DNA of 59,428 nt. Source: a virus (taxonomy: Duplodnaviria; Caudoviricetes). A program made the position numbers and the translations under genes. The DNA is taken from positions 1 through 59,428 of the IMG/VR virus record IMGVR_UViG_3300027787_000003. One strand, 5' to 3'. Below, piece by piece: positions 716-57,229 of this stretch. The notes under the pieces were generated by a model, which worked only from the letters and a program-made list of their open reading frames with translations, was not told the origin of the DNA and ran no database searches. The first letter of the stretch is position 1; every line of letters begins with the position of its first letter.

Positions 716-3700
716 GTGACCGATGTCGGAAAGGTACAGCTCGGCGTCGAGCTGGACGCCGACGATCTGGCAGCCCGGCTCGGCGAAGCGGTGCGGCGGG
801 CCATCGCGCCCGCGCTCGCTGAAATCAACCGCGAGCTGAACAAGGTCCAGCGCGAGTACGAAAAGACTGGCCGATCCGCCGAGAAGTCAGGCGCGGCCCA
901 GCGTGTCGCGATGGAAGCCGCCGAACAGGCGGTCCACAACCTCGGCGAGGAGCAGACCAAGGCGGCGCGCAAAACCGCCGCCGCTGGCGGGATCAGCACG
1001 CGCTCGATCAACGCCGTCACTCGCGCCCTCGACAAGCAGACCGCCGCCTGGGCAGCCAACACCGCCGCGCGCACGGCCAACGCCGCCGCGCCGACCGGCG
1101 GGCCACCGACCGGCGGCACCCGAGGCCCGCCAGGCGGCGGCGGTAGCTTCGACCGTCACCGTGGCGGGTTCATGCAGGGCGGCAAGGGCCGGTTCGGGTT
1201 CCTGACGTCGCCGCTGGGGATGAACGCCGTCGCGCTCGGCGTCGGGTCGCTCGGCCCGGCGCTGGCGGTCGTGACTGACCTGGTGGGCGGCGTCCAACAG
1301 CTCGCCGGGGCGGGCCTGGCGCTGCCGGGCATCTACGGCGCGGCGGGCGCGTCGATCCTGACCGCCGTCGCGGGCTTCAAGGGCATGGGCGATGCCGTCA
1401 AGGCGCTGAACGAGGCGGCGAAGTCGGGCGACCCAAAGGACTTGGAGAAAGCCACCGAGGCCATGAAGGACATGGACCCGGCGGCTCAGGCGGTCGCGAA
1501 AACGGTCTCGGGCCTGACCCGTGGACCGTTGCTCGACCTCCAGAAGATGATGGCCGGGCGCATGTTCGCCGGGTTCGACACCGACCTACAGAACACCGCC
1601 GACAAGGTGATCCCCCGGCTGAGCGGACGGCTGGGCGACCTCTCGACGGCGTGGAACGGCACGCTGAAGGCGCTCACCGGGGCGGCGCGCGACGACCGCA
1701 ACCTGAGCCTGCTCGACGGCATCCTGGGCGACACCGCCACGGCGCAGACCAAGATCAACGAACGGGTCGTAGCGCCGCTGACGCACGCCCTGCTCACGCT
1801 GACCAAGGGCGGGACCAACGTGCTGCCCCGGCTGGCCGACGGGCTGGCGGCGGGAGCCGAGCGGTTCGACAAGTTCATCACTCACGCCGCCGAGACCGGC
1901 AAGCTCGACAAGTGGATCAACGATGGCGTGACCGGGATGCGCCAGCTCGCCGAGAGCGGGATGAACCTGGTCAAGATCGTCATGGACATCACGCACGCCG
2001 CCGGGTCTGACCAGGGCGGGTTCCTGAGGTGGCTGGAGTCGGCCACCGACAAGCTCCACGACATCACCAGTTCGGCCTCGGGCCAGTCGGCGATGCGGAA
2101 GTTCTTCGATGACGCCCGCGAGATGGGCAAGGAGTGGCTGCCGATCCTGACCAACATCGGCAAGGCGCTGATCGAGGTCTACGAGGCCAGCCGCACCTGG
2201 ACCAACATCCTGTTGCCGTTCCTGAGGGTGGCGAGCGACCTGCTCACGGCGTTCCCTGGGCTGATCACCGCCGCCGGGGTCGCGCTGCTGGCGTGGAAAA
2301 CCTCCTCGATCTTCAAGCCGCTGATTAGCGGGCTGGACACCGTAATCGGCAAGCTCGGCACCGTCGCCCAGACCGCCGACCTCGCGCTGGGCAACACCCA
2401 GGCCGGGCGCGGCGGTATCTCAGGAGCGATGAGTCGCACCCAGCGCGGGCTGAACAAGCTCGGCGGCACTCGCGGCACGCTGGGCCTCGGCGGGCTGGCC
2501 GCTGGCACGGCGATGGAGGCGACCGCCGACGACACGACCGGCCAGGTGGTCGGCGCGCTGACAACGGTAGCGAGCGGTGCCCTGGCGGGGTCGGTGTTCG
2601 GCCCGGTCGGCACCGCCGTCGGCGCTGGCGTCGGCGCGGCGATCGCGGGCGTGACGTTCCTGCTCAGCGAGAACGCCAAGGAGGCCAAGGCGGCGGCGGA
2701 CGCCCAGGCGGCGTACCAGGCCAGCCTCGAACAGTCGCGCGAGGCGCTGCTGAATCTCCAGGGCGCTCAAAAGGAGGTGAACGACTCGCTGCTGGCGGCG
2801 AGCGGCAACCTCGCCGACCAGGGAGTCCAGCAGGGGATCGCGGCCAACCTCGAAGCCCTCCCCGAATCGCTCAAGGCCCACTACGGCGACAACGCCGCCA
2901 AGGGCTTCAGCGACTCCATCGCCAAGCTCGGCCTGAGCAATGCCGAGCTGGCGAACCAGCTCACCGCGAGCCAGCCGATATTCGACGCGCTCCAGACCAA
3001 CCTGCGGATGATGGGACCGGACGGCGCGTTCGCCGCCGACCAGCTACGCCAGCTTCGCGACCAGATCATGGGAGCCAGCCAGCAAGCGGCGGTGGCCGGG
3101 CCAGCGATGGCGACCCTCGCCGAGATTCTGCACACCGACGTCGCCGGGGCGGCGGCGACGGTTCGCACGGCGGTCCAGTCGATCCCCGAAAACGTCCCGA
3201 TCACGATGGACCTGCCCAACGCGGACGCGACAGTCGAGTTGCTGCGGTCGATGGGCTACCAGATCGACATTGTGGATGGTCGCGCGGTCGTCATCAACGC
3301 CGACGACCAGAAGGTGAAGGACGCCGACGCCGCGCTCGAAGCCCTCGGCGTCAAGATCACGCACCTCCCGACCGGCCAGATTCAGGTCGAGATTGACCAG
3401 GCCAAGCTCCAGGCCGCGCAGATGGACATGAACAACTTCTTCGTGCAGTACTCGAAGTTGCTCATCCAACCGACGGTGCAGCCCGCGCCGGGCCAGATGC
3501 CCGCGCCGGGCGTGGTCACCGGCCCGCCCGAAATCATGCCCGGCGTGCCGTTCCCTCAGCCGCCGCGCGCGACCGGCGGCGTGCTGCCGGGGTACTCGCC
3601 GGGGCGCGACAACATGCTGGTCCCGCTCGGCGGCGGCGAGGGCATCATCATCCCCGAGGCGATGCGCTGGCTGGGGAGCGACTGGCTCTACAACCTGAAC

Positions 3701-6700
3701 TCCAGCTTCCGAGGCGGCATCAGCCGCCAGGGCTACGCGGGCGGCGGCGTCCACATGGGGACCGGGCTGCCGCCTGGCCCGCTCGACCCCGACGCCAAGA
3801 ACCCGATGCTGACCACGCTGGAGGACATCCTGGCGGTGCTCCAGGGCCGGGGCGGGCCGATGACGCCGCTGAACATGACGGCGACCCAGACCCAGAAGAT
3901 GTCCGACGCGCTGATCGGCGGGCTGCCGGGGATGACGCCTGGCCGGATGGGACCGTTCGGCACCCCGATCAAGCCGCGCAACCGAGGCTACGAAATGGCC
4001 AGCGCGGCGCTTCAGGCGCTCGGCGCTGACCCCGAGAAGTGGATCGGACCCGATCCGGTCGAGTACTTCGGCAACGCCATCAAGGAACAGCTCGACCAGA
4101 CCCGCCAGGCGGCGGGGTCGAGCGGTGGCGTCCCTGGTGGAATGCCCGGCGCTCCGGTCGATTACGGCAAGGTCGCCGCCGCGCTGGTGAGCTTCGCCCA
4201 CACGGGCAACCTGGCCGACGTCGCGGGCATCGGCCTGAACGCGAACGATCCGGTCATCGGCGCGATCACCTCGGCGCGCAACAAGAAGGGCGGGCTGAGC
4301 GACGACGCCCTGGTAGAGCTGATCAATCAAATTGTCGGAGGCACAGGCTATTCCGGCGTGCTCGACACCCAGAACACCGCGATCGTCAAGAGCCTGACCA
4401 GGTTCCGCGAGCAGATGGACAAGAAGGGCGGCGTCCCCGGCGCGGCGATGGCCATGCCCGGCGCGGCCAACACGGGCGGGTACAACTTCGACGCCCTGGC
4501 CAAGCTCGAAGCGGGCGGCAACTGGTCGATCAACACCGGCAACGGGTATTTCGGTGGACTCCAGTTTGATCAGTCCACCTGGGACGCCTACAAGCCCGCC
4601 GGGTTCCCGGCGCGGGCCGACCTCGCCAGCCGCGAGCAGCAGATTCAGGTCGCGATGATCGCGATGCAGGCGCGCGGCGGGCCGGAATCGTTGTGGCCTC
4701 AGAACTACTCGGCGCTCGGCCAGCCCGGCGCGACCAACGTCACCGGGGCGAACCTGCCCGGCGTGACCCAGGCGCGGGCCTCGGCGGTCAAGGGCAGCAA
4801 GGCCGGGCTTCAGCCAGCGGCGGCGAACCTGTTCGACGTGATCAGCCAGTACTTCCCGCAGATCGGCGAGATTGGCGGCGTGCGCCAGGACAGCCTGCCG
4901 TACCACCCGAGCGGGCGGGCGCTCGACATTATGATCCCCGGCGCGGGCGGGCTGAACGACCCGACGCCGCCGGGCGCGAAGGCCCTCGGGGACTCGATCT
5001 ACCAGTTCTTGATGACCAACGCGAGCGCCCTGGGCATCGACACCAGCGGCACCCTCTGGCAGCAAAAGGACCACTTCAACCACATCCACGCCCAGCTCAT
5101 CGACGGCATCGACCAGTTCACGAACGCGGGTCTCAGCGCCGCGCCGGGCGGGCTGGGCGGCGCGACCAGTGGCAGCGGGACGCCCGTGTTCGTCACGAAC
5201 TGGCCGGGCGGCGGCGGGGCGGGGATGCCGCCGGGCGTGAGCGCGCTTCTCGGCGGGCTGACCCAGGGAGGCCAGGAGGCGGCGGGCAACGTCGTCGGCG
5301 ACATCGGCGCGGCGCTCAGCGGCGCGGTCAACCCGAGCGAGGGCCAGCCGAACGCCGCCCTGGGAGACCTGATCCAACAGCGCAACCCGATGGCGCTCGC
5401 CGCCGCGCTGGGCCTCAACGTGCCCGACTTCACCCGCGAGGGCGGCGCGGGCGCTGACGCGATCACCCAGGCGGGCGGGTTCGACGCCCAGGGCCGACTG
5501 TTCAGCGACACCGCCGGGCTGCTCGACCGGACGTTCACCACCCTGGCGACCCAGCTTCAGGCGATGCGCGACCAGATCGTGAGCGTCATCGACCAGGTAG
5601 TGGACAAGCTGAACGACGACGCCCTGACCCCGGTCGTGAAGGCGGGCGTCCAGAGCGCCCTCGAAGGGCTGAAGGAATCGGTCTCGAACCAGATCGGCAC
5701 GGCGATGGGCAACGCCGCCGCCCCGCCGATCGCCGACGCGGTGAGCAGCGCGGTCAGCTCGCTCCCGATCGACCAGAGCGGCGCGGGCAACACCGGCAAC
5801 AACGCCGCCAGCCTCGGCCAGAACGCCCTGGGAGCCATCGCGGGCGGGTTCGCTACCGGCGGTCTGGTCTGGGGCGGCATCCCCGGTCGCGACACGGTGC
5901 CGCTGCTGGCTCAACAGGGCGAGTTCGTGCTGGACACGGGCGACGTCGCGCGCATGGGCGGACCGAAGGGCGTCGAGGCGTTCCGCCGGGCGCTGGAGCG
6001 CGGCGGCGGCATCCGCCACTTCGCCACGGGCGGCGGCGTCAACGTGAACGATGTCGTGGGCGCGGAGTTCTTCGGCGTGAGCGAGGTGCCGATCATCTCC
6101 ACGATCGTCAACCTGCTCGTCCGCGTGCTGCTCAAGGTGATCGGCGTCGAAATCGAGGCCCGCGACACGCTGGCCGAGATGACCGGCGAGTTCCGTACCT
6201 TCCGAGGTGACGCCTTCAAGGCGTTCGACGCTCAGGGCCGACTGCTGAACGACACCTCGGCGCTGATCGAGCGGTCGTCCACCAGCGAGGAGACCGCCGC
6301 CGCCGAGCGCATCCGCATCCTCAAGATCGTCATTCAGGCGATCATCAAGTACCTGATCGAAAAGGTCATCGTCCCGATTATGAAGGCGGTCGCCAACAGC
6401 GCGATCCAGGCCGGGGCGAGCGCGGCGGGCGCGGCGGTCAACACCCAGGCTCCCGGCGCTGGCGGCATCGTGTCGAGCTTGATCAGCTCGGCGGGCCAGG
6501 CGGGCGTGGACATCGCCGCCGAGGTCGGCACCGACTTCGCCCTGGCGATCAGCCAGACCCTTATCGACATGGTGGCCGAGGGCCTGGTGAGCCAGTTCCC
6601 CGACATGATGACCGGCATTTTCGGCGGCGCTGGGCTGGCGGCGCTGTTCGACCCGCTGGGCGGCGGGCTGGGCAACGTGCTCGGCGCGCTGCTGGGCATC

Positions 6701-7015
6701 TTCACCGGCCTGGTCGGGTTCGGCGCGCTGGGCGGCGCGTCAACGATGATCCCAGGGGACGCGCTGCTGGGCGGCACACTGTTCGATGACGGCGGCATGG
6801 CCGAGGGCGTCGGCTGGCTCCCCAAGGGCACCGAGGAGCCAGAACTGGTCCTCAGCCCGACCGAGACCAACATCTTCAGCCGGTTCGTCGCCGCGCTCGA
6901 ACGGGGCGGGTTCGGCGGTGGCGGCAACCGAACGGTCAACGCTCCAATTACAGTGATCGGTGGGCGCGAGACCGCCGCCCAGGTCGAGGACCGGCTGCTC
7001 AGGATGATGCCGTAG
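716..7015 (+). CDS. Tape measure protein with internal Rpf-like transglycosylase and peptidase-like motifs
   Basis: 2099 aa, Ala/Gly-rich, longest ORF, positioned between chaperone and minor tail genes. Contains EAGGNWSINTGNGYFGGLQFDQSTW and YHPSGRALDIM..HFNHIH. Confidence 0.95.
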   Translation: MTDVGKVQLGVELDADDLAARLGEAVRRAIAPALAEINRELNKVQREYEKTGRSAEKSGAAQRVAMEAAEQAVHNLGEEQTKAARKTAAAGGISTRSINAVTRALDKQTAAWAANTAARTANAAAPTGGPPTGGTRGPPGGGGSFDRHRGGFMQGGKGRFGFLTSPLGMNAVALGVGSLGPALAVVTDLVGGVQQLAGAGLALPGIYGAAGASILTAVAGFKGMGDAVKALNEAAKSGDPKDLEKATEAMKDMDPAAQAVAKTVSGLTRGPLLDLQKMMAGRMFAGFDTDLQNTADKVIPRLSGRLGDLSTAWNGTLKALTGAARDDRNLSLLDGILGDTATAQTKINERVVAPLTHALLTLTKGGTNVLPRLADGLAAGAERFDKFITHAAETGKLDKWINDGVTGMRQLAESGMNLVKIVMDITHAAGSDQGGFLRWLESATDKLHDITSSASGQSAMRKFFDDAREMGKEWLPILTNIGKALIEVYEASRTWTNILLPFLRVASDLLTAFPGLITAAGVALLAWKTSSIFKPLISGLDTVIGKLGTVAQTADLALGNTQAGRGGISGAMSRTQRGLNKLGGTRGTLGLGGLAAGTAMEATADDTTGQVVGALTTVASGALAGSVFGPVGTAVGAGVGAAIAGVTFLLSENAKEAKAAADAQAAYQASLEQSREALLNLQGAQKEVNDSLLAASGNLADQGVQQGIAANLEALPESLKAHYGDNAAKGFSDSIAKLGLSNAELANQLTASQPIFDALQTNLRMMGPDGAFAADQLRQLRDQIMGASQQAAVAGPAMATLAEILHTDVAGAAATVRTAVQSIPENVPITMDLPNADATVELLRSMGYQIDIVDGRAVVINADDQKVKDADAALEALGVKITHLPTGQIQVEIDQAKLQAAQMDMNNFFVQYSKLLIQPTVQPAPGQMPAPGVVTGPPEIMPGVPFPQPPRATGGVLPGYSPGRDNMLVPLGGGEGIIIPEAMRWLGSDWLYNLNSSFRGGISRQGYAGGGVHMGTGLPPGPLDPDAKNPMLTTLEDILAVLQGRGGPMTPLNMTATQTQKMSDALIGGLPGMTPGRMGPFGTPIKPRNRGYEMASAALQALGADPEKWIGPDPVEYFGNAIKEQLDQTRQAAGSSGGVPGGMPGAPVDYGKVAAALVSFAHTGNLADVAGIGLNANDPVIGAITSARNKKGGLSDDALVELINQIVGGTGYSGVLDTQNTAIVKSLTRFREQMDKKGGVPGAAMAMPGAANTGGYNFDALAKLEAGGNWSINTGNGYFGGLQFDQSTWDAYKPAGFPARADLASREQQIQVAMIAMQARGGPESLWPQNYSALGQPGATNVTGANLPGVTQARASAVKGSKAGLQPAAANLFDVISQYFPQIGEIGGVRQDSLPYHPSGRALDIMIPGAGGLNDPTPPGAKALGDSIYQFLMTNASALGIDTSGTLWQQKDHFNHIHAQLIDGIDQFTNAGLSAAPGGLGGATSGSGTPVFVTNWPGGGGAGMPPGVSALLGGLTQGGQEAAGNVVGDIGAALSGAVNPSEGQPNAALGDLIQQRNPMALAAALGLNVPDFTREGGAGADAITQAGGFDAQGRLFSDTAGLLDRTFTTLATQLQAMRDQIVSVIDQVVDKLNDDALTPVVKAGVQSALEGLKESVSNQIGTAMGNAAAPPIADAVSSAVSSLPIDQSGAGNTGNNAASLGQNALGAIAGGFATGGLVWGGIPGRDTVPLLAQQGEFVLDTGDVARMGGPKGVEAFRRALERGGGIRHFATGGGVNVNDVVGAEFFGVSEVPIISTIVNLLVRVLLKVIGVEIEARDTLAEMTGEFRTFRGDAFKAFDAQGRLLNDTSALIERSSTSEETAAAERIRILKIVIQAIIKYLIEKVIVPIMKAVANSAIQAGASAAGAAVNTQAPGAGGIVSSLISSAGQAGVDIAAEVGTDFALAISQTLIDMVAEGLVSQFPDMMTGIFGGAGLAALFDPLGGGLGNVLGALLGIFTGLVGFGALGGASTMIPGDALLGGTLFDDGGMAEGVGWLPKGTEEPELVLSPTETNIFSRFVAALERGGFGGGGNRTVNAPITVIGGRETAAQVEDRLLRMMP

Positions 7016-19279: not shown

Positions 19280-19537
19280 TCAGGCGACGTCCCTGTAGCG
19301 CCGCTCGCGGGTCTCGCGCTGCCGCTCGCGGGTGATCCGCTCGGCGAAGGGTGGTTGTGAGGGCTGAGGCCCGAGCGACCGGGAGCGGGCATCTGAGGGC
19401 CGATCGAGGATCGGTCGCAGCACGCTCGCGACGATCATCGCCAGGCCGAACGCCCAGACCACCCAGGCGCGGCGGTAGTCGGAGTCCAGCCCGGCGACGA
19501 ACACCAGGGCACCGGCCAGGAACAGGCGCACGTTCAC
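19280..19537 (-). CDS. Small membrane protein (2 TM, basic tail)
   Basis: Two hydrophobic segments and an Arg-rich C-terminus. Confidence 0.6.
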   Translation of the reverse strand: MNVRLFLAGALVFVAGLDSDYRRAWVVWAFGLAMIVASVLRPILDRPSDARSRSLGPQPSQPPFAERITRERQRETRERRYRDVA

Positions 19538-46869: not shown

Positions 46870-47928
46870 TCAGGCGGGCATCACGGCGGCGAACGCCTTG
46901 GCCTTCATGTCGCTGACCTCGGCGCTGAGCAGCGTGCGCTGGGCGCGCTTGATCGCCGCCTCCTCGGCCTCCATCTTCGCCTCGCCCGTGACCGGCGCGA
47001 GGTGGTCGAAGTACTCGGTGACCGCGTTGTACGCGCCGAACGCCGTGCCGTAGAACGGCTTGACCGTCGGGCTGGTCTGGTACAGGTCCATGACCGTGTT
47101 GACCCGCTCGATGCGGCTGTTCTTCTGGCGCTCGGTGGTCGCGCCCTCGACCCCGAACAGGCCCGTGAAGATGTCGAGCACCTTCACGTTGTCGAGCGAC
47201 TGAGCGATCCGGCGCTCGCACTCAGCAACGTAGGTGTCGCCCAGCTTGAACGTCAGGCCCAGCAGGTTGCGGACCTCGGCCATCCGAGCGCGCGGGTCGC
47301 CCGTGTGGCGCAGCGCCACCCGTGAGACCGCCATGCTCTCGGCCATCCGCTGAGTGTTGGCGCACACCACCCGAACCGGGCTGATGTTGGCCACCAGCGA
47401 GCCGCCGCCGTCGTGCCAGTTGAAGATGCTGAGGTACAGGCTGGTCTTGTCCACCGAGCCGTCGAGGCCCTTCAGCTCCATCCAGTCGGGCATGACCATC
47501 GTGACGAACGTGCGCCGACCGCCGTCGAGGCCCGCCAGGGTCTCGATGTGCCCGCCGCTGGCCTCGGTGATGTCGCCGAGCAGCGCCGTGGTCGCCTCGT
47601 TCTGGAAGGGCTGCCAGTGGTTGCCGACGACGCCCAGCGCCTCGACCTTGCCGTTCACCGGGTTCGTCCGCAGCGTGGCGAACTTGCCGGGGACGGTGAC
47701 CTCGATGTCCTCGCCGTCAGGGCCGGGCACCTTGGCCGTCAGCGGCACCTTGCGGACGTCCCAGCCGCGCATGTGAGCGGCGTCGAGGGCTTCGTCCACG
47801 GTCATCGCGTGGCCGACCGGGGTGCCGAGGCGGTGCCAGGCGTCGGTGACGGTCTCGCCGTTGGCGAGCTGGCGGGTCCGCGAATCTGCGAACGCGGCTA
47901 CCCCGTCGGTGATGTCGATGTCGTGCAT
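46870..47928 (-). CDS. DUF932-family phage/plasmid protein
   Basis: AWHRLG, HDGGGS, PVRVVCANT, LRHT, GTAFGAYNAVTEY. AAAGGA RBS. Confidence 0.8.
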   Translation of the reverse strand: MHDIDITDGVAAFADSRTRQLANGETVTDAWHRLGTPVGHAMTVDEALDAAHMRGWDVRKVPLTAKVPGPDGEDIEVTVPGKFATLRTNPVNGKVEALGVVGNHWQPFQNEATTALLGDITEASGGHIETLAGLDGGRRTFVTMVMPDWMELKGLDGSVDKTSLYLSIFNWHDGGGSLVANISPVRVVCANTQRMAESMAVSRVALRHTGDPRARMAEVRNLLGLTFKLGDTYVAECERRIAQSLDNVKVLDIFTGLFGVEGATTERQKNSRIERVNTVMDLYQTSPTVKPFYGTAFGAYNAVTEYFDHLAPVTGEAKMEAEEAAIKRAQRTLLSAEVSDMKAKAFAAVMPA

Positions 47929-49921: not shown

Positions 49922-50602
49922 TCAGGCTTGCTCAGCCTGACGGGCCTGCCAGGCGGCGGACCCGGCGGCGCGAGCGCCGTTCGGGATGTACCGCAACCAG
50001 GTGTCGAGCTGGAGCGCGGCGTCGTCGGCGGTCATGCCCTCGGGCAGCTCGCCGTCGAGGATCGCCTGCACCGCCTGGTGGACCAGCGCGCCGAGCGCCT
50101 GGCGCTGGGCGACCTTGCCACCCTTGGGCTTCGCCGGGGCGATCGGGGTCGCCTCGCCAGCCTCGACCGCCTCGGCCTGAACCTCGGCCTCGGGCTGAGT
50201 CACGACCGGCTCGTCCACCGGGGACTCCTCGGCCTCGACCTCGGTGGCCTCGACCAGCTCGGGCTGCTCGACCTTGGCCTTCGGCGCGCCCTTGGCGATG
50301 ATCAGCGCGTCGATCGCCTCGGCCTGCCAGCCCTTGTCGGCGGGGAAGTCGCCGACCTCGGCCTTGCCCTTGACGGCGGTCGGGACGGCGGGGACGACCT
50401 TGGTGCGGTGGTTGTCCTGGTGGTAGCCCTCCTGGCTCGCCTTGAACGCGGCGGCGGCTGACTTGTGCCAGCTCCACGGGCCGAAGTCGCTCTCACCCTT
50501 GCCCGCGACCATCAGGACGTGGGTGTAGGGCATGGTGCCCGAGGTGCGGGTGAAGGTCTCGCCGTTGGGTGCGGTGGCGGTGAACTCGATCTTTGCGGCC
50601 AT
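49922..50602 (-). CDS. Hypothetical early protein
   Basis: 226 aa with an acidic linker, GAGAGG RBS, two tandem promoters upstream. Confidence 0.75.
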   Translation of the reverse strand: MAAKIEFTATAPNGETFTRTSGTMPYTHVLMVAGKGESDFGPWSWHKSAAAAFKASQEGYHQDNHRTKVVPAVPTAVKGKAEVGDFPADKGWQAEAIDALIIAKGAPKAKVEQPELVEATEVEAEESPVDEPVVTQPEAEVQAEAVEAGEATPIAPAKPKGGKVAQRQALGALVHQAVQAILDGELPEGMTADDAALQLDTWLRYIPNGARAAGSAAWQARQAEQA

Positions 50603-50651
50603 GATGTTTTCCTCTCGGTTGTGGCGGGCTGTTCCCGACCTGACGAGAGCT

Positions 50652-50681
50652 ACACTAACCCGCCCTTGTCGGGTAAGTCAA
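50652..50681 (-). promoter_or_regulatory. SigA-like promoter with operator (copy 7)
   Basis: - strand TTGACT-TACCCGACAAGGGCGGGT-TAGTGT. Confidence 0.85.
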
Positions 50682-50777
50682 GTGGATAGGAGAAATTCGC
50701 GCGAAAATCTTTTCCCCAGGTCAGCGGAGGTATTCCGCGCACCTCTCGGTTGGTCCCCGGCGACCGGCTCCAGCCCT

Positions 50778-50807
50778 ACACTAACCTGTCAATGTCGGGT
50801 TTGTCAA
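50778..50807 (-). promoter_or_regulatory. SigA-like promoter with operator variant (copy 8)
   Basis: - strand TTGACA-AACCCGACATTGACAGGT-TAGTGT. Confidence 0.8.
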
Positions 50808-50851
50808 CACGCCTGGACGATCTGGGCCTGTCCTCGCGATACGATCGCGGC

Positions 50852-51685
50852 ATGGCCTCGACCTCGACCGTCGGCAAGACGACCAACGTCCCGCCGTCCA
50901 CGCTGAATACCTTCCACCGCAACCCTCGCAAGGGCGACATCCCGGCGATCATGGCGAGCCTGCGCCGCCATAACCAGTACAAACCGATCACGGTCAACGT
51001 CGGCACCCACACGGGCCGACCGAACGAGGTGCTGGCGGGCAACCACACCCTGCTCGCGATCCGCGCGCTGGCCGAGGACGACCCCGACGACAAGCGATGG
51101 CACAAGGCGATCGCGTTCTGGGTGGACGTCGATGACGACATGGCCGACCGAATCGTGGTCGCCGACAACCAAACCGGACAGCTCGGCGGGTTCGATGAAG
51201 CCGAGCTGGCCGAGCTGGTGGCCGGGTTCGGCTCAGACATCGAGGGCCTGGGGTTCACTGAGGCCGACATCGCCGACCTGAACGCGCTGCACCAGGAGGG
51301 GCAAACCGACCTACCGCCGTTCACCTCGCCATTCGATGACCGTGGCAACGGCTCCACCGGGGAGACCGGCCCGCGCGACGACGGGCTGGTGAACGCGAAG
51401 GACATGACTCAGCGCCGCGACGAGTACGCCGAGAACGCCGGTCAGCGCATGGTCGTGCTCTCGATGCCGATTAACGTGTTCGTCTGGGTTCAGGAGGCCC
51501 TGGCCGAGGTGCGCTCGGCTGAGGGCGTCGAGACCAACACCGACGCCGTGGTGAAGCTGCTGGAGGCGTACACCAGCCGGTCAGCGCCCGCGCCCGAGGC
51601 CACGCCCGAGCCGGTCGCCGACGAGTTCGAGCGATTCCCCGCCGAGCCGGGCGATCCTGAGGGCTTCGATGACGCTGGCGACTGA
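50852..51685 (+). CDS. ParB/Srx-like N-terminal domain protein
   Basis: HRNPRKG..IMASL..QYKPI..VLAGNHT..IVVADN. ATG 50852 lies 6 nt after TACGAT. Confidence 0.85.
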   Translation: MASTSTVGKTTNVPPSTLNTFHRNPRKGDIPAIMASLRRHNQYKPITVNVGTHTGRPNEVLAGNHTLLAIRALAEDDPDDKRWHKAIAFWVDVDDDMADRIVVADNQTGQLGGFDEAELAELVAGFGSDIEGLGFTEADIADLNALHQEGQTDLPPFTSPFDDRGNGSTGETGPRDDGLVNAKDMTQRRDEYAENAGQRMVVLSMPINVFVWVQEALAEVRSAEGVETNTDAVVKLLEAYTSRSAPAPEATPEPVADEFERFPAEPGDPEGFDDAGD

Positions 51686-52547
51686 GCTTCATCGCCTCGA
51701 TGTGAAGCGCGTGGCGTCAGCCGAGGACGCGACGACGTGCGTCGGCGACATGGTGCCCGAGCGCGAGCCGACCGACATGCGCCCTGGGACGGTGGTCTAC
51801 GACGCCGACACGGGCGAGCCGGTCCTGGGATACCTCGCCCTGGCCGACCCAGGCCCGCTGCGGCGGGCGCTGCTCCAGATCGACTGCGGGGCGGCGGTCC
51901 AGCGGGCCAACAACTACCGCTCCCGGTCGCGGACGTTCGGCTATGCGCCGCGCCGCCCGGTGATCTGGCGCGAGGCGTGCGGCATCGCCACCCTCGGGCG
52001 CGACCAGCCCGACATCGAGGCGGTGCTGGAGGGGTACGCCGATCAGTTCATGGACGGGCTGGCCCGCATCGACGTCAACCTGATCCGCGCCGGGCGGGCG
52101 GCGACCGAGAGCGTTCGGCCCGACTGGAAGATGGGCGGCGCGCAGTTCTGGACCTCGGGCGTGGTCAACGACACCGCCCAGCTCCCGTACCACCGCGACG
52201 GGTTCAACTTCCCGGTCTGGTCGGCGATGCCGCTGGTCCGCCGGGGAACGCGCGGCGGTCATCTTCACCTCCCCGAGTACGACCTGGTGGTGCCGTGCGC
52301 CGACGCCACGGTGACGTACTTCGAGGGCTTCCGCCTGGTCCACGGCGTCACGCCGATTCGCCGGGTCAAGGCCAAGGAGGGCTACCGAATCAGCGCGGTC
52401 TACTACGCGCTGCGGGGGATGAAGAACTGCCGCTCAGCCGCCGAGGAAGCCGCCTACGGGCGGAAGCGCCGAACCGAGCGCGAGGCTGAAATGGCCGCGC
52501 GCCTGGCCGCTGGCGATCGGTCGATCCCCGGTCAGACCAAGGGCTGA
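51669..52547 (+). CDS. TET/JBP-family 2-oxoglutarate/Fe(II) dioxygenase
   Basis: WTSGVVN..LPYHRDGFN (HxD), GGHLHLPEY, VHGVTP (distal His), YRISAVYY (2OG-binding Arg). Confidence 0.9.
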   Translation: MTLATELHRLDVKRVASAEDATTCVGDMVPEREPTDMRPGTVVYDADTGEPVLGYLALADPGPLRRALLQIDCGAAVQRANNYRSRSRTFGYAPRRPVIWREACGIATLGRDQPDIEAVLEGYADQFMDGLARIDVNLIRAGRAATESVRPDWKMGGAQFWTSGVVNDTAQLPYHRDGFNFPVWSAMPLVRRGTRGGHLHLPEYDLVVPCADATVTYFEGFRLVHGVTPIRRVKAKEGYRISAVYYALRGMKNCRSAAEEAAYGRKRRTEREAEMAARLAAGDRSIPGQTKG

Positions 52548-52551
52548 GTTA

Positions 52552-52580
52552 CCCGACCGGGGCGGGCAATAGGCTATCCT
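52552..52580 (+). promoter_or_regulatory. Operator copy plus -10 element for the glycosyltransferase gene
   Basis: CCCGAC-CGG-GGCGGG (52552-52566), then TATCCT (52575-52580) 6 nt before the ATG. Confidence 0.55.
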
Positions 52581-52586
52581 CGGGCC

Positions 52587-53333
52587 ATGCCTCGGAACGT
52601 CCAGATCGCGATTCCCTCGTACCACCGCCCGCGCCGCATCGCTGAGACCACGCTGCCGCTGCTGCGCGACGGCGGCGTGGACATGGCCAGCGTGACCGTG
52701 TTCCTGACCGATGAGACCGAGCTGGCCGCGTACACGCCCGCCATCGAGGCGTTCGGCATCGGCGTCGAGGTCGGCCACGGCGTCGGCACCGCCGAGGCCC
52801 ACAATCACATCGCCCGCCACTATCCACCAGGGACGCCGCTGGTCCAGATAGACGACGACGTGAGCCGCATCGTCCAGCGCCAGGACGAGAAAACGCTGGT
52901 CGATGTGCGCGACCTCCCGGCGCTGTTCGACCTGGCGTTCCATGAGGCGTGCGGGACGCTGTGGTGCGTGTACCCGGCGGCGAACCCGTTCTACATGGCC
53001 GACCGGGTGCGGCGCTCGGGTCTCTGGTACGCCGAGGGCTGCCTGTTCGGCTACGAGGTCTCAGGCGGTGACTGGGAGCTGTGCCACGTTGACCACGGCG
53101 ACGACTACGAGCGGTCGATCAGGTTCTTCGAGGCCCTGGGCGCGGTGACGCGGCTCGACAACTACAGCTTCGTGAGCAAGTTCTGGAAGGAGCCGGGTGG
53201 CCTTCAGGACGTCCGCACGCCCGAGAACGTCATGGCTGGGCTGACGTACATCACCGACCGCTGGCCACACCTGGCGAAGCTCTACTACAACGCCGCCGGG
53301 CGTCCCAACCTGCGGCTGAAGGTGATCAAGTGA
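52587..53333 (+). CDS. GT-A fold glycosyltransferase (TET-associated type)
   Basis: IAIPSYHRP N-terminal strand, VQIDDD metal-binding motif, DDYERSI, PGGLQ. Confidence 0.85.
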   Translation: MPRNVQIAIPSYHRPRRIAETTLPLLRDGGVDMASVTVFLTDETELAAYTPAIEAFGIGVEVGHGVGTAEAHNHIARHYPPGTPLVQIDDDVSRIVQRQDEKTLVDVRDLPALFDLAFHEACGTLWCVYPAANPFYMADRVRRSGLWYAEGCLFGYEVSGGDWELCHVDHGDDYERSIRFFEALGAVTRLDNYSFVSKFWKEPGGLQDVRTPENVMAGLTYITDRWPHLAKLYYNAAGRPNLRLKVIK

Positions 53334-53908
53334 CCGCCCTGATCGTCGCGCCACACTGCGACGACGCCGAGCTGGGCTGCTCGATGGTGGCCAAGGGCGC
53401 GCGGCTCGCCGTCGTCAGCGCGAACGACGGCGCTCGCTGGGAGGAGCAGGTCCAAGGCGCGGCGTGGATGGGCGTGGCCGACACCATGCGCGCGGGGTTC
53501 CCCGACGGGGAGGTGGTCCACGACCGCCACCTGGTCGGGTTCATCGAACTGGCGCTCACCGGCTGCGACGTCGTGTACTCGCCGCCGCTGGCCGACACCC
53601 ATCAGGACCACGCCGCCGTCGCCCGCGCGGTGATCAGCGCCGCCCGCCGGTCGCCGGTCGGCATCATCGAGTACGAGACCCCGAGCGTGCTGCCGAGCTG
53701 GGAGCCGAACTGGTGGGTGCCGATGACGCCGACCGACCTGGACGAGCAACACCTGGCCCTGAGCTGCCACGTCAGCCAACACGACCGGCCCTACTTCAGC
53801 CCGCACTGGCTCGGCAATCGAGCCATGTTCCGAGGCCAACAGGTCGGCGTCCCGTTCGCCCAGACCTTCCGCGTGGTGCGGGCGGTCCGACAAGGAGGGT
53901 TCCTGTGA
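53330..53908 (+). CDS. PIG-L/LmbE-family N-acetyl-sugar deacetylase
   Basis: VAPHCDDAELG and DTHQDH Zn motifs, R..E, YETP, CHVSQ. Confidence 0.9.
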   Translation: MTALIVAPHCDDAELGCSMVAKGARLAVVSANDGARWEEQVQGAAWMGVADTMRAGFPDGEVVHDRHLVGFIELALTGCDVVYSPPLADTHQDHAAVARAVISAARRSPVGIIEYETPSVLPSWEPNWWVPMTPTDLDEQHLALSCHVSQHDRPYFSPHWLGNRAMFRGQQVGVPFAQTFRVVRAVRQGGFL

Positions 53909-54483
53909 CCATTCACCGCCTGATCTACCTCGCCGGTCAGCCCGGCTCGGGCAAAAGCACGCTGATGGCGCGCCTGACCGAGGGCTACGACCGAATCCAC
54001 GTCGGCCCGCCCGAGGTGCCCGTGGCTCACGACCAGCTCACGCGCGAGGTGCCCGGCGGCGTCGATGACGGCACGATCGAAATCGTCGGAGCCGAGCTTG
54101 GCGAGCAGCGCGGCGCGTTCGGCGGCACCGACCTGCTCCCGGCGTCGATCATCGACAAGGCCATCCCGTGGATCGAGACCGCTCCGTACCGGCTGGTCCT
54201 CGCCGAGGGCCAGCGCCTCGCGAACAAGCGATTCCTCCTGGCAGCCGCCTCGACCTACCAGGTGACGCTGGCGCTGCTCGACCACGCCGACCAGGACGCC
54301 TGGAGGCGCAAGCTCAGCCGGTCGCGTGGCCGGATTCAGAACGAGAGCTGGGTGAAGGGTCGGCTCACCGCGAACCGTAACCTCGCCGACCAGCTCGACG
54401 GCAAGCTGGACATCTGCGTGCTGCGTGGTCATCCTGACGCGCTGTTCGAGCCGCTGAAGGCGGTAATCTCGGGCGATGGCTGA
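53905..54483 (+). CDS. P-loop (NMP-kinase-like) protein
   Basis: LIYLAGQPGSGKST Walker A, FGGTD, EGQRL. GTGA overlap, AGGAGG RBS. Confidence 0.8.
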   Translation: MTIHRLIYLAGQPGSGKSTLMARLTEGYDRIHVGPPEVPVAHDQLTREVPGGVDDGTIEIVGAELGEQRGAFGGTDLLPASIIDKAIPWIETAPYRLVLAEGQRLANKRFLLAAASTYQVTLALLDHADQDAWRRKLSRSRGRIQNESWVKGRLTANRNLADQLDGKLDICVLRGHPDALFEPLKAVISGDG

Positions 54484-56221
54484 GGTCGAGTTTCCAGACC
54501 GCTCGGGCGTTCCGCTGCCCGACGTCTGGACCGCTGACGGCGCGTTCGACAGCCAGCGAGCGGCCCTGATCGCCGCTGAAACCGACGACTGGCCCGACGA
54601 CCAGCGGGCGGCGATGCTGGCCAGCCTCCGTGCCGCTGAGGTGCGCGCCGTGGCCAAGACACGCTACCGGCACCCCGCCGACATCGCCCGCAGCGTCGAT
54701 CCCAACTTCGTGCTGACGCCCGCCCTCGATCTGATCAGCTCGGCGATCGAGCGCGTGCTGGACAGCCCGCGCAAGATCAACCTGGCGATCACGATGCCGC
54801 CTCAGGAGGGCAAATCAACCACGGCGGCGGTCTGGACGCCGATCCGCGCGCTCCAGAAGAACCCGAACCGCCGGATCATTCTCTCGACCTACGCCGACGC
54901 CCTCGCCGAGGCGCACAGCCGCGCCGCCCGCTCAATCATCAGCACCTACGGCGCGGGCCTGACCGATTCGCTGACCGGCCTGGCGGTCGAGGACAAGATC
55001 GGACTGAAGCTCGCCCAGGGAGCGAACAAGGTCAGCGCGTGGTCGGTCGAGGGCGGCGCGGGCGGTCTGGTCGCCGCCGGTATCGGCTCCACGATCACCG
55101 GCCTCCCGGCTGACCTGTTCATCATTGACGACCCGTTCAAGAACATGATGGAGGCCGACTCAGCCGCCCACCGCAACCGCATCGAGGCGTGGTTCAGCTC
55201 GGTCGCGCTGACCCGCCTCGCGCCCGACGCCAGCGTGATCCTGATTCAGACCCGCTGGCACCCCGAGGACTTGGCCGGAAAGGTGTTCGCCGGGGAGAAG
55301 CTGCTGCCCAAGGGCGAGCGGACCTGGCGGTTCTTGAACATCCCGGCCATCGCCGAGGAGGGCATCCCCGACGCCCTGGGACGCGCGCCGGGCGTGCCGA
55401 TGGTCAGCGCCCGCGACACCGCCGAGGCCAAGCGCAACTTCGCCGTCACGCGCCGCCAGGTCGGCGAGCGCACCTGGTACGCCCTCTACCAGGGCAGCCC
55501 GCGCAACCCGGCGGGCGGCATCTTCCAGCGGGCGTGGTTCGAGCCTCGGCTGCCTGAGCCGCCGCTGTACCCGATCGCCTCGATGGTCGGCGTGGACCCG
55601 GCTGACTCAGGCGAGGGCGACGAAGCCGGAATCATCGGCGGGATGCTCTACCACGACGCGGGCCAGGCCAAGGTCGCCCTGACCCACGACCGATCCGGCC
55701 AGTTCACCGCCGACCAGTGGGCGCGCGAGGCGGTGCTGCTGGCGCTCGAAATCGGCGCTCGGGAGGTCGCCGTCGAGAGCTACACCAGCTCGACCACCTA
55801 CGTCCAGGTGGTCAAGCGGGCCTACCAGGCGGTCCACCGCGAGGCGGTGACCAAGGCCCACAACGGCGCGGCGCTGACCCCGGTCGAGCAGCGCGCCCTG
55901 ACCGACATTCCGCCGTTCATGGTGACCAAGTGGCGCGGCCCGACCAAGGCCGACGCCGTGGCCCGCTCGGGCGCGCTGAGCCAGGCCCTCGAAACGGGGA
56001 AGTGCCGAACGGTCGATTACGTGATGCGCGTGTTCGAGGAGCAGGCGTGCGACTGGCAGGCCGGTCAACACCAGCCCGACCGGGTGGCGGCGGCGGTCAT
56101 CACTCACGACAAGCTCGCCACGCTGGCGGGCGGCGGAATGCACCTGGCCAGTCCGATCGACGCCCAGGCGAGCGTCGTCGGGGTCGCGCCGCCCGCGTAC
56201 CTGCGGCGCAAGATCGGCTAA
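54476..56221 (+). CDS. terL: Terminase large subunit
   Basis: MPPQEGKST, FIIDDP, IQTRWH, ALYQG.P, VGVDPA, PDRV. Confidence 0.95.
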   Translation: MAEVEFPDRSGVPLPDVWTADGAFDSQRAALIAAETDDWPDDQRAAMLASLRAAEVRAVAKTRYRHPADIARSVDPNFVLTPALDLISSAIERVLDSPRKINLAITMPPQEGKSTTAAVWTPIRALQKNPNRRIILSTYADALAEAHSRAARSIISTYGAGLTDSLTGLAVEDKIGLKLAQGANKVSAWSVEGGAGGLVAAGIGSTITGLPADLFIIDDPFKNMMEADSAAHRNRIEAWFSSVALTRLAPDASVILIQTRWHPEDLAGKVFAGEKLLPKGERTWRFLNIPAIAEEGIPDALGRAPGVPMVSARDTAEAKRNFAVTRRQVGERTWYALYQGSPRNPAGGIFQRAWFEPRLPEPPLYPIASMVGVDPADSGEGDEAGIIGGMLYHDAGQAKVALTHDRSGQFTADQWAREAVLLALEIGAREVAVESYTSSTTYVQVVKRAYQAVHREAVTKAHNGAALTPVEQRALTDIPPFMVTKWRGPTKADAVARSGALSQALETGKCRTVDYVMRVFEEQACDWQAGQHQPDRVAAAVITHDKLATLAGGGMHLASPIDAQASVVGVAPPAYLRRKIG

Positions 56222-56778
56222 TCGCTGAGCTTGTCCACGACTTCGAGCCGGTACTGAGTCACCGGCAGAATCGGGCGCTGGAGCCGCTGGCACGTCGCCG
56301 CGCCGACCATCAGCGCGTCGGCTTCGTTGTTGCTCGCCAGGTCGGCCTCGGGGAACAGCTTGATCGCCGCCGCCAGAATGTGGTCCTTGTCGGTGCCCGG
56401 CCCTGAGCCTTTGCCGACGGTGAACTTCGCCCGCTGGCTGGTCCCGACGACGGTCACGGGCGTCCCGTGGCGCTCGCACAGCTCCAGCACCCGACCGAAA
56501 ATCCACGGCAACACCCAGGCGTTCTCGCCCTTGGCGGCGAACGCCAGGTTCTCGATCCCGACGGCATCGACGCCCTCGAACGCTGGCTCGATCTGGTCGA
56601 GCAGCGCGTTCACCCGGCGCACCATCGCGCGCTTGCTCTTGTCCTTGGTGGGCTTGGGCGCGCTGACCGTCGCCGTGGCGATGACCGCCCGCCAGCGATC
56701 GCCGTCGTGCTCGCCGATGTCGATGCGCGCGAGACCCGTCGCCGTCAGCGAGGAGTCGATCCCAAGTACCCGAGGCAT
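56218..56778 (-). CDS. ruvC: RuvC-like Holliday junction resolvase
   Basis: VLGIDSSLTATG, GIE, NEADAL. ATG 56778 lies 7 nt after TAACAT. Confidence 0.9.
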   Translation of the reverse strand: MPRVLGIDSSLTATGLARIDIGEHDGDRWRAVIATATVSAPKPTKDKSKRAMVRRVNALLDQIEPAFEGVDAVGIENLAFAAKGENAWVLPWIFGRVLELCERHGTPVTVVGTSQRAKFTVGKGSGPGTDKDHILAAAIKLFPEADLASNNEADALMVGAATCQRLQRPILPVTQYRLEVVDKLSD

Positions 56779-56787
56779 GGCGGTCAT

Positions 56788-56810
56788 GTTACCCGACCCC
56801 GACGGGTAAC
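56788..56810. promoter_or_regulatory. Palindromic operator-like site between divergent genes
   Basis: GTTACCCG-ACCCCGA-CGGGTAAC, containing CCCGAC-N3-GACGGG. Confidence 0.55.
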
Positions 56811-56827
56811 TCTGTATCATCGCGTCC

Positions 56828-57229
56828 ATGACAACGCTTGTGCTGATCGTCTGGACCCTCGCGGTGATGCGCCTGACGCGGCTGATCAACGGCGACAAGA
56901 TCACCGACCGCCTGAGGCTGTACCCGGCTGGCAAGCTCCGCGCCGCCCAGCTCGTCCGCCAGGAGGCCCTGGGACACGGCCAGGTTCAGCGCGCCGCCGA
57001 CGCCGAGGCCCAGATTCAACGCTGGGACAAGGTGCTGTACTTCATCGAGTGCCCCTGGTGCGTGTCGATGTGGATCGCCTTCGGCACAGCCTGGGTGCCG
57101 CTGTTCTTCCACCACAACGTCGTCGCGCGGTACATCGCGATCGCCCTCGCCGCCTCCCACCTGGTCGGCGTCATGGCCCGATTCGCCGACACCGAGGAAA
57201 TTGACATCGAGGACGATGACGACCAGTAG
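56828..57229 (+). CDS. Membrane protein (DUF1360-like)
   Basis: RLTRLI..D.I, CPWCVSMW, hydrophobic segments, acidic tail. Confidence 0.7.
   Translation: MTTLVLIVWTLAVMRLTRLINGDKITDRLRLYPAGKLRAAQLVRQEALGHGQVQRAADAEAQIQRWDKVLYFIECPWCVSMWIAFGTAWVPLFFHHNVVARYIAIALAASHLVGVMARFADTEEIDIEDDDDQ

Follow-up and report, generated by a model that had tools for sequence, protein, structure and literature searches.

The operon described here occupies positions 50852 to 54483 of a 59,428-base virus record (IMG/VR IMGVR_UViG_3300027787_000003; Duplodnaviria, Caudoviricetes), which has a G+C content of 69%, is rated about 84% complete and was analyzed as a whole stretch, hereafter the window. Five uninterrupted plus-strand open reading frames (ORFs) with zero internal stops and a third-codon-position G+C (GC3) of 0.88 to 0.92 make up the operon. 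They encode a ParB-like protein, a TET/JBP-family dioxygenase (TET), a glycosyltransferase (GT), a PIG-L-family deacetylase and a P-loop kinase, and the TET, GT and PIG-L products are predicted to place an amino sugar on phage DNA. The features of the region, in window coordinates, are listed below.

50852..51685, plus strand: ParB-like protein, 277 amino acids, ATG start (phrog_6392; E value, 9.8e−124); presumed to activate the dioxygenase or to target it
51669..52547, plus strand: TET/JBP-family (5mYOX) Fe(II)/2-oxoglutarate dioxygenase, 292 amino acids; predicted to hydroxylate thymine in DNA to 5-hydroxymethyluracil (5hmU)
52587..53333, plus strand: GT-A glycosyltransferase of the TET-associated glycosyltransferase (TAGT) family, 248 amino acids; predicted to transfer an N-acetylhexosamine (HexNAc) onto the 5-hydroxymethyl group
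53330..53908, plus strand: PIG-L/LmbE-family zinc deacetylase, 192 amino acids, GTG start; predicted de-N-acetylase of DNA-bound HexNAc
53905..54483, plus strand: P-loop kinase (Ploopntkinase3), 192 amino acids, GTG start; possible but unproven pathway member
54476..56221, plus strand: large terminase subunit (phrog_38; E value, 4e−96; Pfam Terminase_6N; E value, 2.9e−09), overlapping the kinase stop by 8 nucleotides (nt)
52191, 52341 and 52386, plus strand: TET motifs H175-R-D177, H225-GVTP and R240-IS, read from the sequence
52851, plus strand: GT motif D89-D-D91, read from the sequence
53351 and 53600, plus strand: PIG-L motifs P8-HCDD12 and H91-QDH94, read from the sequence

A sequence-only reading of this DNA had described five contiguous, co-oriented and mostly overlapping genes, and the coordinates and junctions bear this out: the five genes are separated by −17, +39, −4 and −4 nt, followed by −8 nt between the kinase and large terminase genes. 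The 4-nt overlaps of the GT with the PIG-L gene and of the PIG-L with the kinase gene indicate translational coupling. Every TET, GT and PIG-L motif was found at the base where that reading had placed it, and as these residues are invariant across the aligned relatives of all three proteins, they represent conserved catalytic residues and not chance strings. Its five family assignments were likewise supported by Pfam and PHROG matches and by the conservation of catalytic residues in relatives. The term "five-gene cluster" held for the layout only, given that the kinase was found in 416 phage records and TET in 100 (phage collection of 50,697 records, including RefSeq/GenBank duplicates), which argues against the kinase as a pathway-specific fifth gene. 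The conserved unit is ParB, TET, GT and PIG-L rather than all five genes.

The nearest public relative of the window is Mycobacterium phage Indlovu (Bclasvirinae). The 3,632 bases of the operon matched Indlovu genes 1 to 5 with 88.6% identity over 97% of the length; in Indlovu these are labeled ParB-like nuclease domain protein, queuine tRNA-ribosyltransferase, glycosyltransferase, glucosaminyl deacetylase and adenylate kinase, and the terminase gene is next. Window bases 2 to 25000 correspond to Indlovu positions 19383 to 43771, and the portion missing from the window therefore corresponds to the Indlovu capsid and tail genes. The window derives from a soil mycobacteriophage of the cluster-B type (Bclasvirinae).

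By family and residues, gene 2 encodes a TET/JBP dioxygenase. Its relatives numbered 702 at an E value of ≤0.001 among 8,000 scored candidates from 5.8 billion proteins, many of them already annotated with PF12851 (Tet_JBP), and 32 were aligned (alignment A1). Tet_JBP was the sole Pfam family matched in 32 of 32 aligned sequences (best E value, 2.6e−09), and H175, D177, H225 and R240, which make up the Fe(II)-binding facial triad (HxD...H) and the arginine for 2-oxoglutarate binding within the double-stranded beta-helix core, were invariant throughout. When the A1 profile was compared with PDB, the best match was the Naegleria Tet-like dioxygenase (E value, 0.0075), followed by human TET2 and CMD1, and the alignment with the Naegleria enzyme spanned both the second histidine (H225) and the 2-oxoglutarate arginine (R240). 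All 30 ESM Atlas feature matches fell into one Pfam set, Tet_JBP (three clusters shown), and Tet_JBP scores at the related loci L012 and L163 were 32.8 and 64.1 bits. The C-terminal tail past the catalytic core is also conserved, with C254, E260, R268, R271 and R278 invariant in A1. PDB searches using the TET, GT or kinase protein as a single sequence returned nothing significant, and NCBIfam provided no useful name for the ParB-like, TET or GT proteins.

The public label "queuine tRNA-ribosyltransferase" is also the name of phrog_6059, which gene 2 of the window matches. Assignment of gene 2 as DpdA or a queuine tRNA-ribosyltransferase was rejected, as no TGT family was present among the Pfam matches of the 32 relatives, and BLASTP against the DpdA-type gp2 of the related phage Quesadilla, a member of other PHROGs (7068 and 887), gave an E value of 2.7. 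In many GenBank/RefSeq records of cluster-B phages, as well as in PHROG 6059, the TET/JBP gene is mislabeled "queuine tRNA-ribosyltransferase" or "DpdA-like" (for example, Indlovu, L001 809 to 1687). The label was probably carried over on positional grounds from phages such as Quesadilla, which carry a true DpdA gene in the equivalent slot, and the reassignment of gene 2 corrects a mislabel that is widespread across cluster-B phages.

Gene 3 belongs to the TAGT family, a family reportedly defined by Iyer, Zhang, Burroughs and Aravind in 2013, and its product is predicted to glycosylate DNA. It matched Pfam TAGT (PF20691) with an E value of 1.1e−28 and 101.1 bits (cut-off, 27.5) across profile positions 2 to 205 of 205, together with phrog_25200 (E value, 2.1e−135) and phrog_842, "beta-glucosyl-HMC-alpha-glucosyltransferase" (E value, 8.6e−09). 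The DxD metal/nucleotide-sugar motif, D89-D90-D91, was invariant in eight of eight aligned GTs.

Gene 4 encodes a member of the PIG-L/LmbE deacetylase family with intact zinc and catalytic residues. It matched PF02585 (E value, 1.7e−09; 38.7 bits against a cut-off of 28.2) and the Thermus protein TT1542 (PDB 1uan; E value, 6.3e−06), the latter aligned across the AHPDD and HxDH motifs. H9, D11, D12, H91, D93 and H94 were invariant in 15 of 15 relatives, and from MshB we take the motif residues to be zinc ligands and the catalytic aspartate. The Atlas model of the protein had a predicted template modeling score (pTM) of 0.92 and template modeling (TM) scores of 0.91 to 0.93 to PIG-L clusters. 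The phage clade is small; among 1.84 billion cluster representatives, 1,620 were matched at an E value of ≤0.001, 170 at 1e−10 and only 8 at 1e−30. The nearest cellular relatives were 22 to 33% identical with zero Mycobacterium among the best 80, the BshB1 equivalog TIGR04001 scored 32.6 bits against a cut-off of 182.5, and no NCBIfam MshB model was matched at an E value of ≤0.01. On these identities, missing Mycobacterium relatives and equivalog scores, a captured host MshB was rejected, and the phage PIG-L is not a recent copy of the host mycothiol enzyme.

A different arrangement was seen in Vibrio phage PG28 (L003 6995 to 13002) and in phage DLP3 (PMC7326821), where sugar genes of the WbqC, WcaG or WecE type surround PIG-L, accompanied by a gene for a large BshA-like glycosyltransferase and by a ParB-like gene close to the terminase gene. 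Clusters of this type may represent a second route of N-acetylglucosamine (GlcNAc) transfer followed by deacetylation.

The product of gene 1 matched the ParB-like PHROGs phrog_6392 ("ParB-like partition protein"), 723, 8071 and 620, with E values from 9.8e−124 to 1.6e−18. In its relatives, ParB_N (PF02195) was detected below the 26.3-bit cut-off, in Arthrobacter phage Prairie (23.3 bits; E value, 6.5e−05) and at locus L010 (17.6 bits; E value, 0.0041). An alignment of the ParB-like proteins (A4) displayed conserved N-terminal and C-terminal domains joined by an acidic linker. The ParB-like protein encoded beside DpdA in Quesadilla (L108 1 to 633) is 61% identical to that of the window and is without the conserved C-terminal domain. 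Judged from these similarities, it seems that a single ParB lineage is paired with two DNA modifiers, TET and DpdA, that are unrelated to each other.

The kinase encoded by gene 5 matched PF18751 (Ploopntkinase3) with an E value of 9.4e−66 and 221.4 bits (cut-off, 27) and has a Walker A motif, GQPGSGKST, at residues 11 to 19. In public records it is labeled "adenylate kinase" or "terminase small subunit," and it is always positioned just upstream of the large terminase gene. It occurs in 6 of 9 loci with TET, TAGT and PIG-L and in 0 of 7 with TET and TAGT only; in Prairie and at loci L010 and L163, TET, TAGT and PIG-L are present and the kinase is absent from the examined locus. A dedicated role in the pathway was rejected, as the kinase is kept in TET-less phages such as Orion and beside the DpdA cassette of Quesadilla. 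Although it follows TET and an ADDT-family gene in phage Heath, it does not co-occur exclusively with a 5hmU source and a transferase, as would be expected of a 5-hydroxymethyl-dU DNA kinase. As the kinase constantly neighbors the terminase, also in TET-less phages, its role is uncertain.

Comparison of related phages placed the GT and PIG-L genes within a variable part of an otherwise shared arrangement ending in the large terminase gene (TerL).

Cooper (L006): ParB-TET-kinase-TerL; GT and PIG-L absent
Heath (L109; gp3 region, 1852 to 2826): ParB-TET-gp3-kinase-TerL; gp3 matches Pfam ADDT (amino acid:DNA transferase; E value, 5e−09)
Quesadilla (L108 630 to 4006): ParB-DpdA-QueC-QueD-QueE-GTP cyclohydrolase-kinase-TerL
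Indlovu, PRodriguez and the window: ParB-TET-GT-PIG-L-kinase-TerL
Orion (L190/L191): kinase-TerL; cassette absent beside the kinase

The GT/PIG-L cassette occupies a slot between TET and the kinase and terminase genes that in relatives is either empty or filled by an ADDT transferase. In others, as in Quesadilla, DpdA and a preQ0-synthesis cassette replace TET and the slot together. Since related phages keep the frame from ParB to the kinase and TerL and vary its interior, GT and PIG-L constitute an accessory two-gene module. In Prairie, ParB and a small ORF are followed by TET, GT and PIG-L, and the kinase is not nearby.

The association of the three enzymes extends beyond these phages. In the phage collection, GT relatives were found in 20 records (12 Mycobacterium, 6 Arthrobacter and 2 Synechococcus) and PIG-L relatives in 21, namely, the same 12 Mycobacterium and 6 Arthrobacter records plus 2 from Vibrio and 1 unclassified. 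The 18 actinophage records carrying both correspond to 15 distinct phages, and the two genes were side by side in every one inspected. TET was identified in at least 13 of the 18 among the matches listed and in three more by DNA match (Donny, EastView9101 and the second Baee record), a count that leaves out Altadena and Klevey, which stood outside the 60 TET matches listed. In IMG/VR, 20 loci had a PIG-L relative, and all six of those with ≥39% identity had Tet_JBP. TAGT was over the cut-off in five of these six close loci; the sixth, L012, scored 23.2 bits (36% identity by tblastn) and also encodes a Ploopntkinase3 gene.

A survey of gene neighborhoods for co-occurrence of TET, GT and PIG-L had been suggested by the sequence-only reading, and its outcome agreed with the proposed link. 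Among 80 TAGT loci from viral metagenomes, 38 had TET and 8 had PIG-L within a 4-kb reach, with TET in all eight PIG-L loci; the hidden Markov models (HMMs) used were built partly from the surveyed sequences, and those rows match by construction. When the whole records of TAGT loci were searched, PIG-L was present in 8 of the 60 that were searchable. Two new architectures were confirmed with Pfam, at L116 (TET, TAGT-PIG-L) and L163 (TAGT-TET-PIG-L). On a quick maximum-likelihood TAGT tree of 84 rows, which has long branches and is unsafe in parts, the PIG-L label required 6 changes, compared with 11.2 on average for shuffled labels, and 0 of 500 shuffles gave so small a number. The PIG-L-linked GTs were clustered but fell into several clades, with at least three changes forced by well-supported branches. 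Together, the forced changes and the clustering beyond that of shuffled labels imply that the GT/PIG-L pairing arose or persisted repeatedly.

Two further loci from these searches had other compositions. At L117 (1735 to 3422), two tandem TAGT paralogues lie beside TET with PIG-L absent, which suggests a disaccharide modification. On L021, a viral contig of 45% G+C, a ParB-like gene, TAGT, PIG-L and a radical-SAM-like gene are in a row (3532 to 6851), and Tet_JBP was unmatched throughout the 26-kb record.

Family membership, intact catalytic residues, operon structure and co-occurrence are established, and from these we infer each chemical step. The TET/JBP dioxygenase, aided by the ParB-like protein, would hydroxylate thymine in replicated phage DNA to give 5hmU, as its family and published relatives indicate. 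The TAGT GT-A enzyme would then move an N-acetylhexosamine, most likely GlcNAc from UDP-GlcNAc, onto the hydroxymethyl group, and the PIG-L/LmbE zinc hydrolase would strip the N-acetyl group. The predicted product is 5-(2-amino-2-deoxyhexosyl-oxymethyl)uracil, which is an analogue of base J carrying an amine that can be protonated. The operon would be read together with the terminase gene, and the benefit, at a guess, could be shielding of phage DNA from host nucleases and perhaps neutralization of charge in the capsid. GlcNAc transfer followed by the action of a PIG-L-family deacetylase is the standard means of installing glucosamine on a hydroxyl, as carried out by MshA/MshB, BshA/BshB, PIG-A/PIG-L and BtrM/BtrD in the synthesis of mycothiol, bacillithiol, glycosylphosphatidylinositol (GPI) and aminoglycosides. 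The sequence-only reading had set out the same path from hydroxymethyl-pyrimidine through HexNAc to hexosamine; its logic is upheld by the adjacency, coupling and recurrence of GT and PIG-L, while its donor sugar and DNA product were surmised. On balance, we put the case that the operon decorates phage DNA with hexosaminyl-oxymethyl-uracil through TET, GT and PIG-L at about even.

For the pyrimidine, the same reading had allowed either thymine or 5-methylcytosine (5mC). The C5-cytosine methyltransferase family (PF00145) was unmatched in the window, which is about 84% complete with its missing part corresponding to Indlovu structural genes, and a control search found the family in 9 of 14 genomes. 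No methyltransferase was named among the annotated products in the three Indlovu stretches examined. O'Toole et al. (2026; PMC13229309) showed that phage 5mYOX enzymes encoded beside a ParB homologue act as thymine dioxygenases and require that ParB to work on double-stranded DNA. The features given there for this subclass are seen in the window, where the ParB-like gene extends 17 nt into the TET gene and PF00145 is absent. Given the ParB neighbor that marks the thymine-dioxygenase subclass and the lack of a detected C5-methyltransferase, thymine is the likely substrate, and the 5mC option of the earlier proposal becomes very improbable. The GT step is supported by phage GTs that place GlcNAc or HexNAc on 5-hydroxymethylcytosine (5hmC) (PMC8256090; bioRxiv 10.1101/2023.12.21.572611), and the choice of donor is supported by GREB1, which has been aligned with TAGT and the J-base GT and uses UDP-GlcNAc (PMC7968844).

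Several observations weigh against amino-sugar modification of DNA by this operon. On its own, the window TET protein scored 16.4 bits on Tet_JBP, under the 34.9-bit cut-off. The ParB fold is also in question, as the window ParB-like protein had zero Pfam matches at an E value of ≤0.1, and PDB searches with its single sequence or a profile gave nothing significant (PDB ParB; E value, 0.72). The TAGT-like phrog_842 is named as a glucosyltransferase, and the donor sugar is not readable from the sequence. GT and PIG-L are acidic (isoelectric point, 5.6), unlike expected DNA-binding enzymes, although this is weak evidence. In a Rosetta-stone test of the 10 longest PIG-L relatives of 150 listed, no fusion to GT or TET was found; three were TPR-PIG-L proteins and seven were PIG-L alone. 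PIG-L relatives at 23 to 30% identity lie in nucleotide-sugar or glycan clusters with TET absent nearby, and the neighbors of these distant phage PIG-Ls include GT4, hexapeptide transferases, WbqC, ATP-grasp, methyltransferases, DegT and an epimerase. Another PIG-L gene has a sugar/glycan-type context in phage DLP3 (table in PMC7326821). The presence of distant PIG-Ls in glycan clusters without TET indicates that the family also acts off DNA in phages. In addition, 30 of the 38 TET and TAGT loci were without PIG-L, and thus TAGT functions without PIG-L and may use a plain hexose in many phages. Finally, the kinase is left unexplained by the proposed pathway.

Other outcomes were considered in light of these points. 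The enzymes could act on DNA and the hexosamine be processed on, with the amine further substituted or the kinase phosphorylating the sugar or 5hmU, in which case the mature base would be an N-substituted or phosphorylated sugar adduct; we consider this unlikely. Deacetylation readies an amine for acylation in mycothiol, bacillithiol and teicoplanin, and the kinase gene both overlaps the PIG-L stop by 4 nt and is confined, among the loci compared above, to those with PIG-L (six of nine against zero of seven). Heath encodes this kinase after TET and a transferase of the ADDT family, an order listed as thymine-hypermodification machinery (PMC13229309). However, an acyl-, amino-acid- or other transferase is absent from the window operon, TET, TAGT and PIG-L occur without the kinase in the examined loci of Prairie, L010 and L163, and the kinase persists in phages without TET and beside the DpdA cassette. 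Somewhat less probable is that GT and PIG-L merely share an operon with TET and that their target is not DNA but, for example, virion proteins, the cell envelope or a small metabolite resembling a thiol. Cellular PIG-L enzymes act on small glycosides, distant phage PIG-Ls are found in glycan and nucleotide-sugar clusters without TET, and both window proteins are acidic. GREB1, a TAGT relative, glycosylates protein (PMC7968844). Set against this are the membership of the GT in a TET-associated family, the presence of TET in 8 of 8 PIG-L-bearing TAGT loci and 6 of 6 close PIG-L loci, the position of the cassette between TET and the packaging genes and outside the structural genes, and the distance of the nearest cellular PIG-Ls (22 to 33% identity, with zero Mycobacterium among the best 80).

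We regard as improbable a pathway that ends at a plain hexose, i.e., true base J, with PIG-L serving as some other amidase or esterase that acts, for example, on a different N-acyl group or a host molecule. The naming of the TAGT-like PHROG as a glucosyltransferase, the glucose carried by base J (PMC13229309) and the 30 of 38 TET and TAGT loci that need no PIG-L would fit such an ending, but the strict GT/PIG-L adjacency and repeated co-inheritance are hard to explain without an acetamido group on the GT product, and the full zinc and catalytic set of PIG-L is conserved. Very improbable, in our view, is a dioxygenase acting on 5mC, which would make the final base a cytosine adduct like those of the phage TET systems described by Burke et al. 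(2021). Clade A/B phage TETs oxidize 5mC (PMC8256090) and thymine dioxygenases can do so in vitro (PMC13229309); on the other side stand the unmatched PF00145 in an 84% complete window that is missing the Indlovu structural genes (control, 9 of 14 genomes), the three examined Indlovu stretches in which a methyltransferase is unnamed, and the production of 5hmU by the ParB-linked subclass (PMC13229309).

A more ambitious form of the hexosaminyl-uracil proposal can also be outlined. A free-amine glucosaminyl-oxymethyl-uracil would be the first amino-sugar nucleobase reported from any DNA, made post-replicatively at ParB-chosen sites only and coupled to packaging through the kinase and terminase; the slot would be plug-and-play, with a single ParB lineage serving modifiers of unrelated chemistry (TET in the window, DpdA in Quesadilla), and the mark would serve packaging or regulation no less than it shields DNA from nucleases. 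Taken whole, this form is unlikely. To our knowledge, known sugar-modified DNA bases carry neutral or N-acetyl sugars, and known cationic thymine modifications arise by a different route that uses a kinase and an amino-acid or polyamine transferase. If the hexosaminyl-uracil proposal is true, a deacetylase that unmasks a DNA-bound sugar amine would be a new tailoring step and would yield a new chemical class of natural base. The base would offer a reactive handle for labeling and would have a bearing on phage escape from restriction, CRISPR and modification-dependent nucleases. Isolated phages propagated on the laboratory strain M. smegmatis mc2 155 (among them Indlovu, Acadian and Baee) or on Arthrobacter globiformis carry the cassette, which makes the prediction readily testable, and Cooper (cassette free) and Heath (other cassette) provide natural controls among close relatives.

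In a word-level survey of sequencing runs, the window was matched in nine runs (contigs); four soil runs from one study contained 0.72 to 0.76 of the sampled words, and no RNA run was among those listed. No tRNA genes were found in the window, and no Rfam families reached the gathering score (1 to 59428). A scan of 50400 to 56400 returned 0 promoter-like sites and a single minus-strand site resembling a terminator, fewer than the mean of 2.4 in shuffled sequence, both of which are uninformative for a mycobacteriophage. A RuvC-like resolvase gene (phrog_159; E value, 7.6e−44) lies on the minus strand at 56218 to 56934, between the terminase and portal genes, and a DUF932 protein (E value, 2.2e−41) is encoded on the minus strand at 46870 to 47928, upstream of the operon.

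The coupled deacetylase had been put forward in the sequence-only reading as undescribed, and this applies to the step and not to the genes. The genes are already public in isolated, published Mycobacterium and Arthrobacter phages, and gene 4 is annotated "glucosaminyl deacetylase" in GenBank; in the one paper found to use that term with phage, it appears only in an annotation listing. No description of a deacetylase acting in DNA glycosylation was found in the literature searched, which did not extend to supplements or to Iyer et al. 2013. The word "deacetylase" is absent from the main texts of Burke 2021, Pyle 2023 and O'Toole 2026 (supplements not covered). The deacetylase step in DNA glycosylation is therefore only provisionally new.

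The proposed pathway resembles several known systems in part. The MshA/MshB, BshA/BshB, PIG-A/PIG-L and BtrM/BtrD modules also add GlcNAc to a hydroxyl and then deacetylate it, using the same PIG-L fold and metal site as the window enzyme; they employ GT-B transferases and small-molecule or lipid acceptors, whereas the window GT is a GT-A TAGT with a presumed DNA-base acceptor. For kinetoplastid base J, a TET/JBP enzyme (JBP1 or JBP2) makes 5hmU post-replication and a TAGT-related GT-A adds the sugar (PMC13229309; PMC7968844). That sugar is glucose, no deacetylase is involved and JBP1 itself binds J-DNA, in contrast to the separate ParB-like presumed partner and the PIG-L of the window. Phage TET and GT systems acting on 5hmC (Burke et al. 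2021; Pyle et al. 2023/2024) share post-replicative oxidation followed by glycosylation, and GlcNAc or HexNAc DNA adducts are demonstrated in them, but their starting point is 5mC, which a methyltransferase of the phage produces. The same genomic slot holds the Rosebush-type DpdA/dPreQ0 system (Hutinet et al. 2019; PMC6884629), as seen in the related Quesadilla between the ParB-like gene and the kinase and terminase genes, and in DNA of the cluster-B phage Rosebush dPreQ0 is found at about 28% of G. That system is unrelated in both chemistry and enzymes, and Quesadilla gp2 is without similarity to the window TET. The ParB-dependent thymine dioxygenases of 5mYOX clade C1 (PMC13229309) likewise have a ParB-like gene beside a TET/JBP gene for a protein of ∼290 amino acids, no C5-methyltransferase and a terminase gene nearby, and the conserved C-terminal tail of the window TET fits, by description only, the "C-terminal extension" named for that clade. 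The window departs from clade C1 as described there by having GT and deacetylase genes after that of its ParB-linked enzyme.

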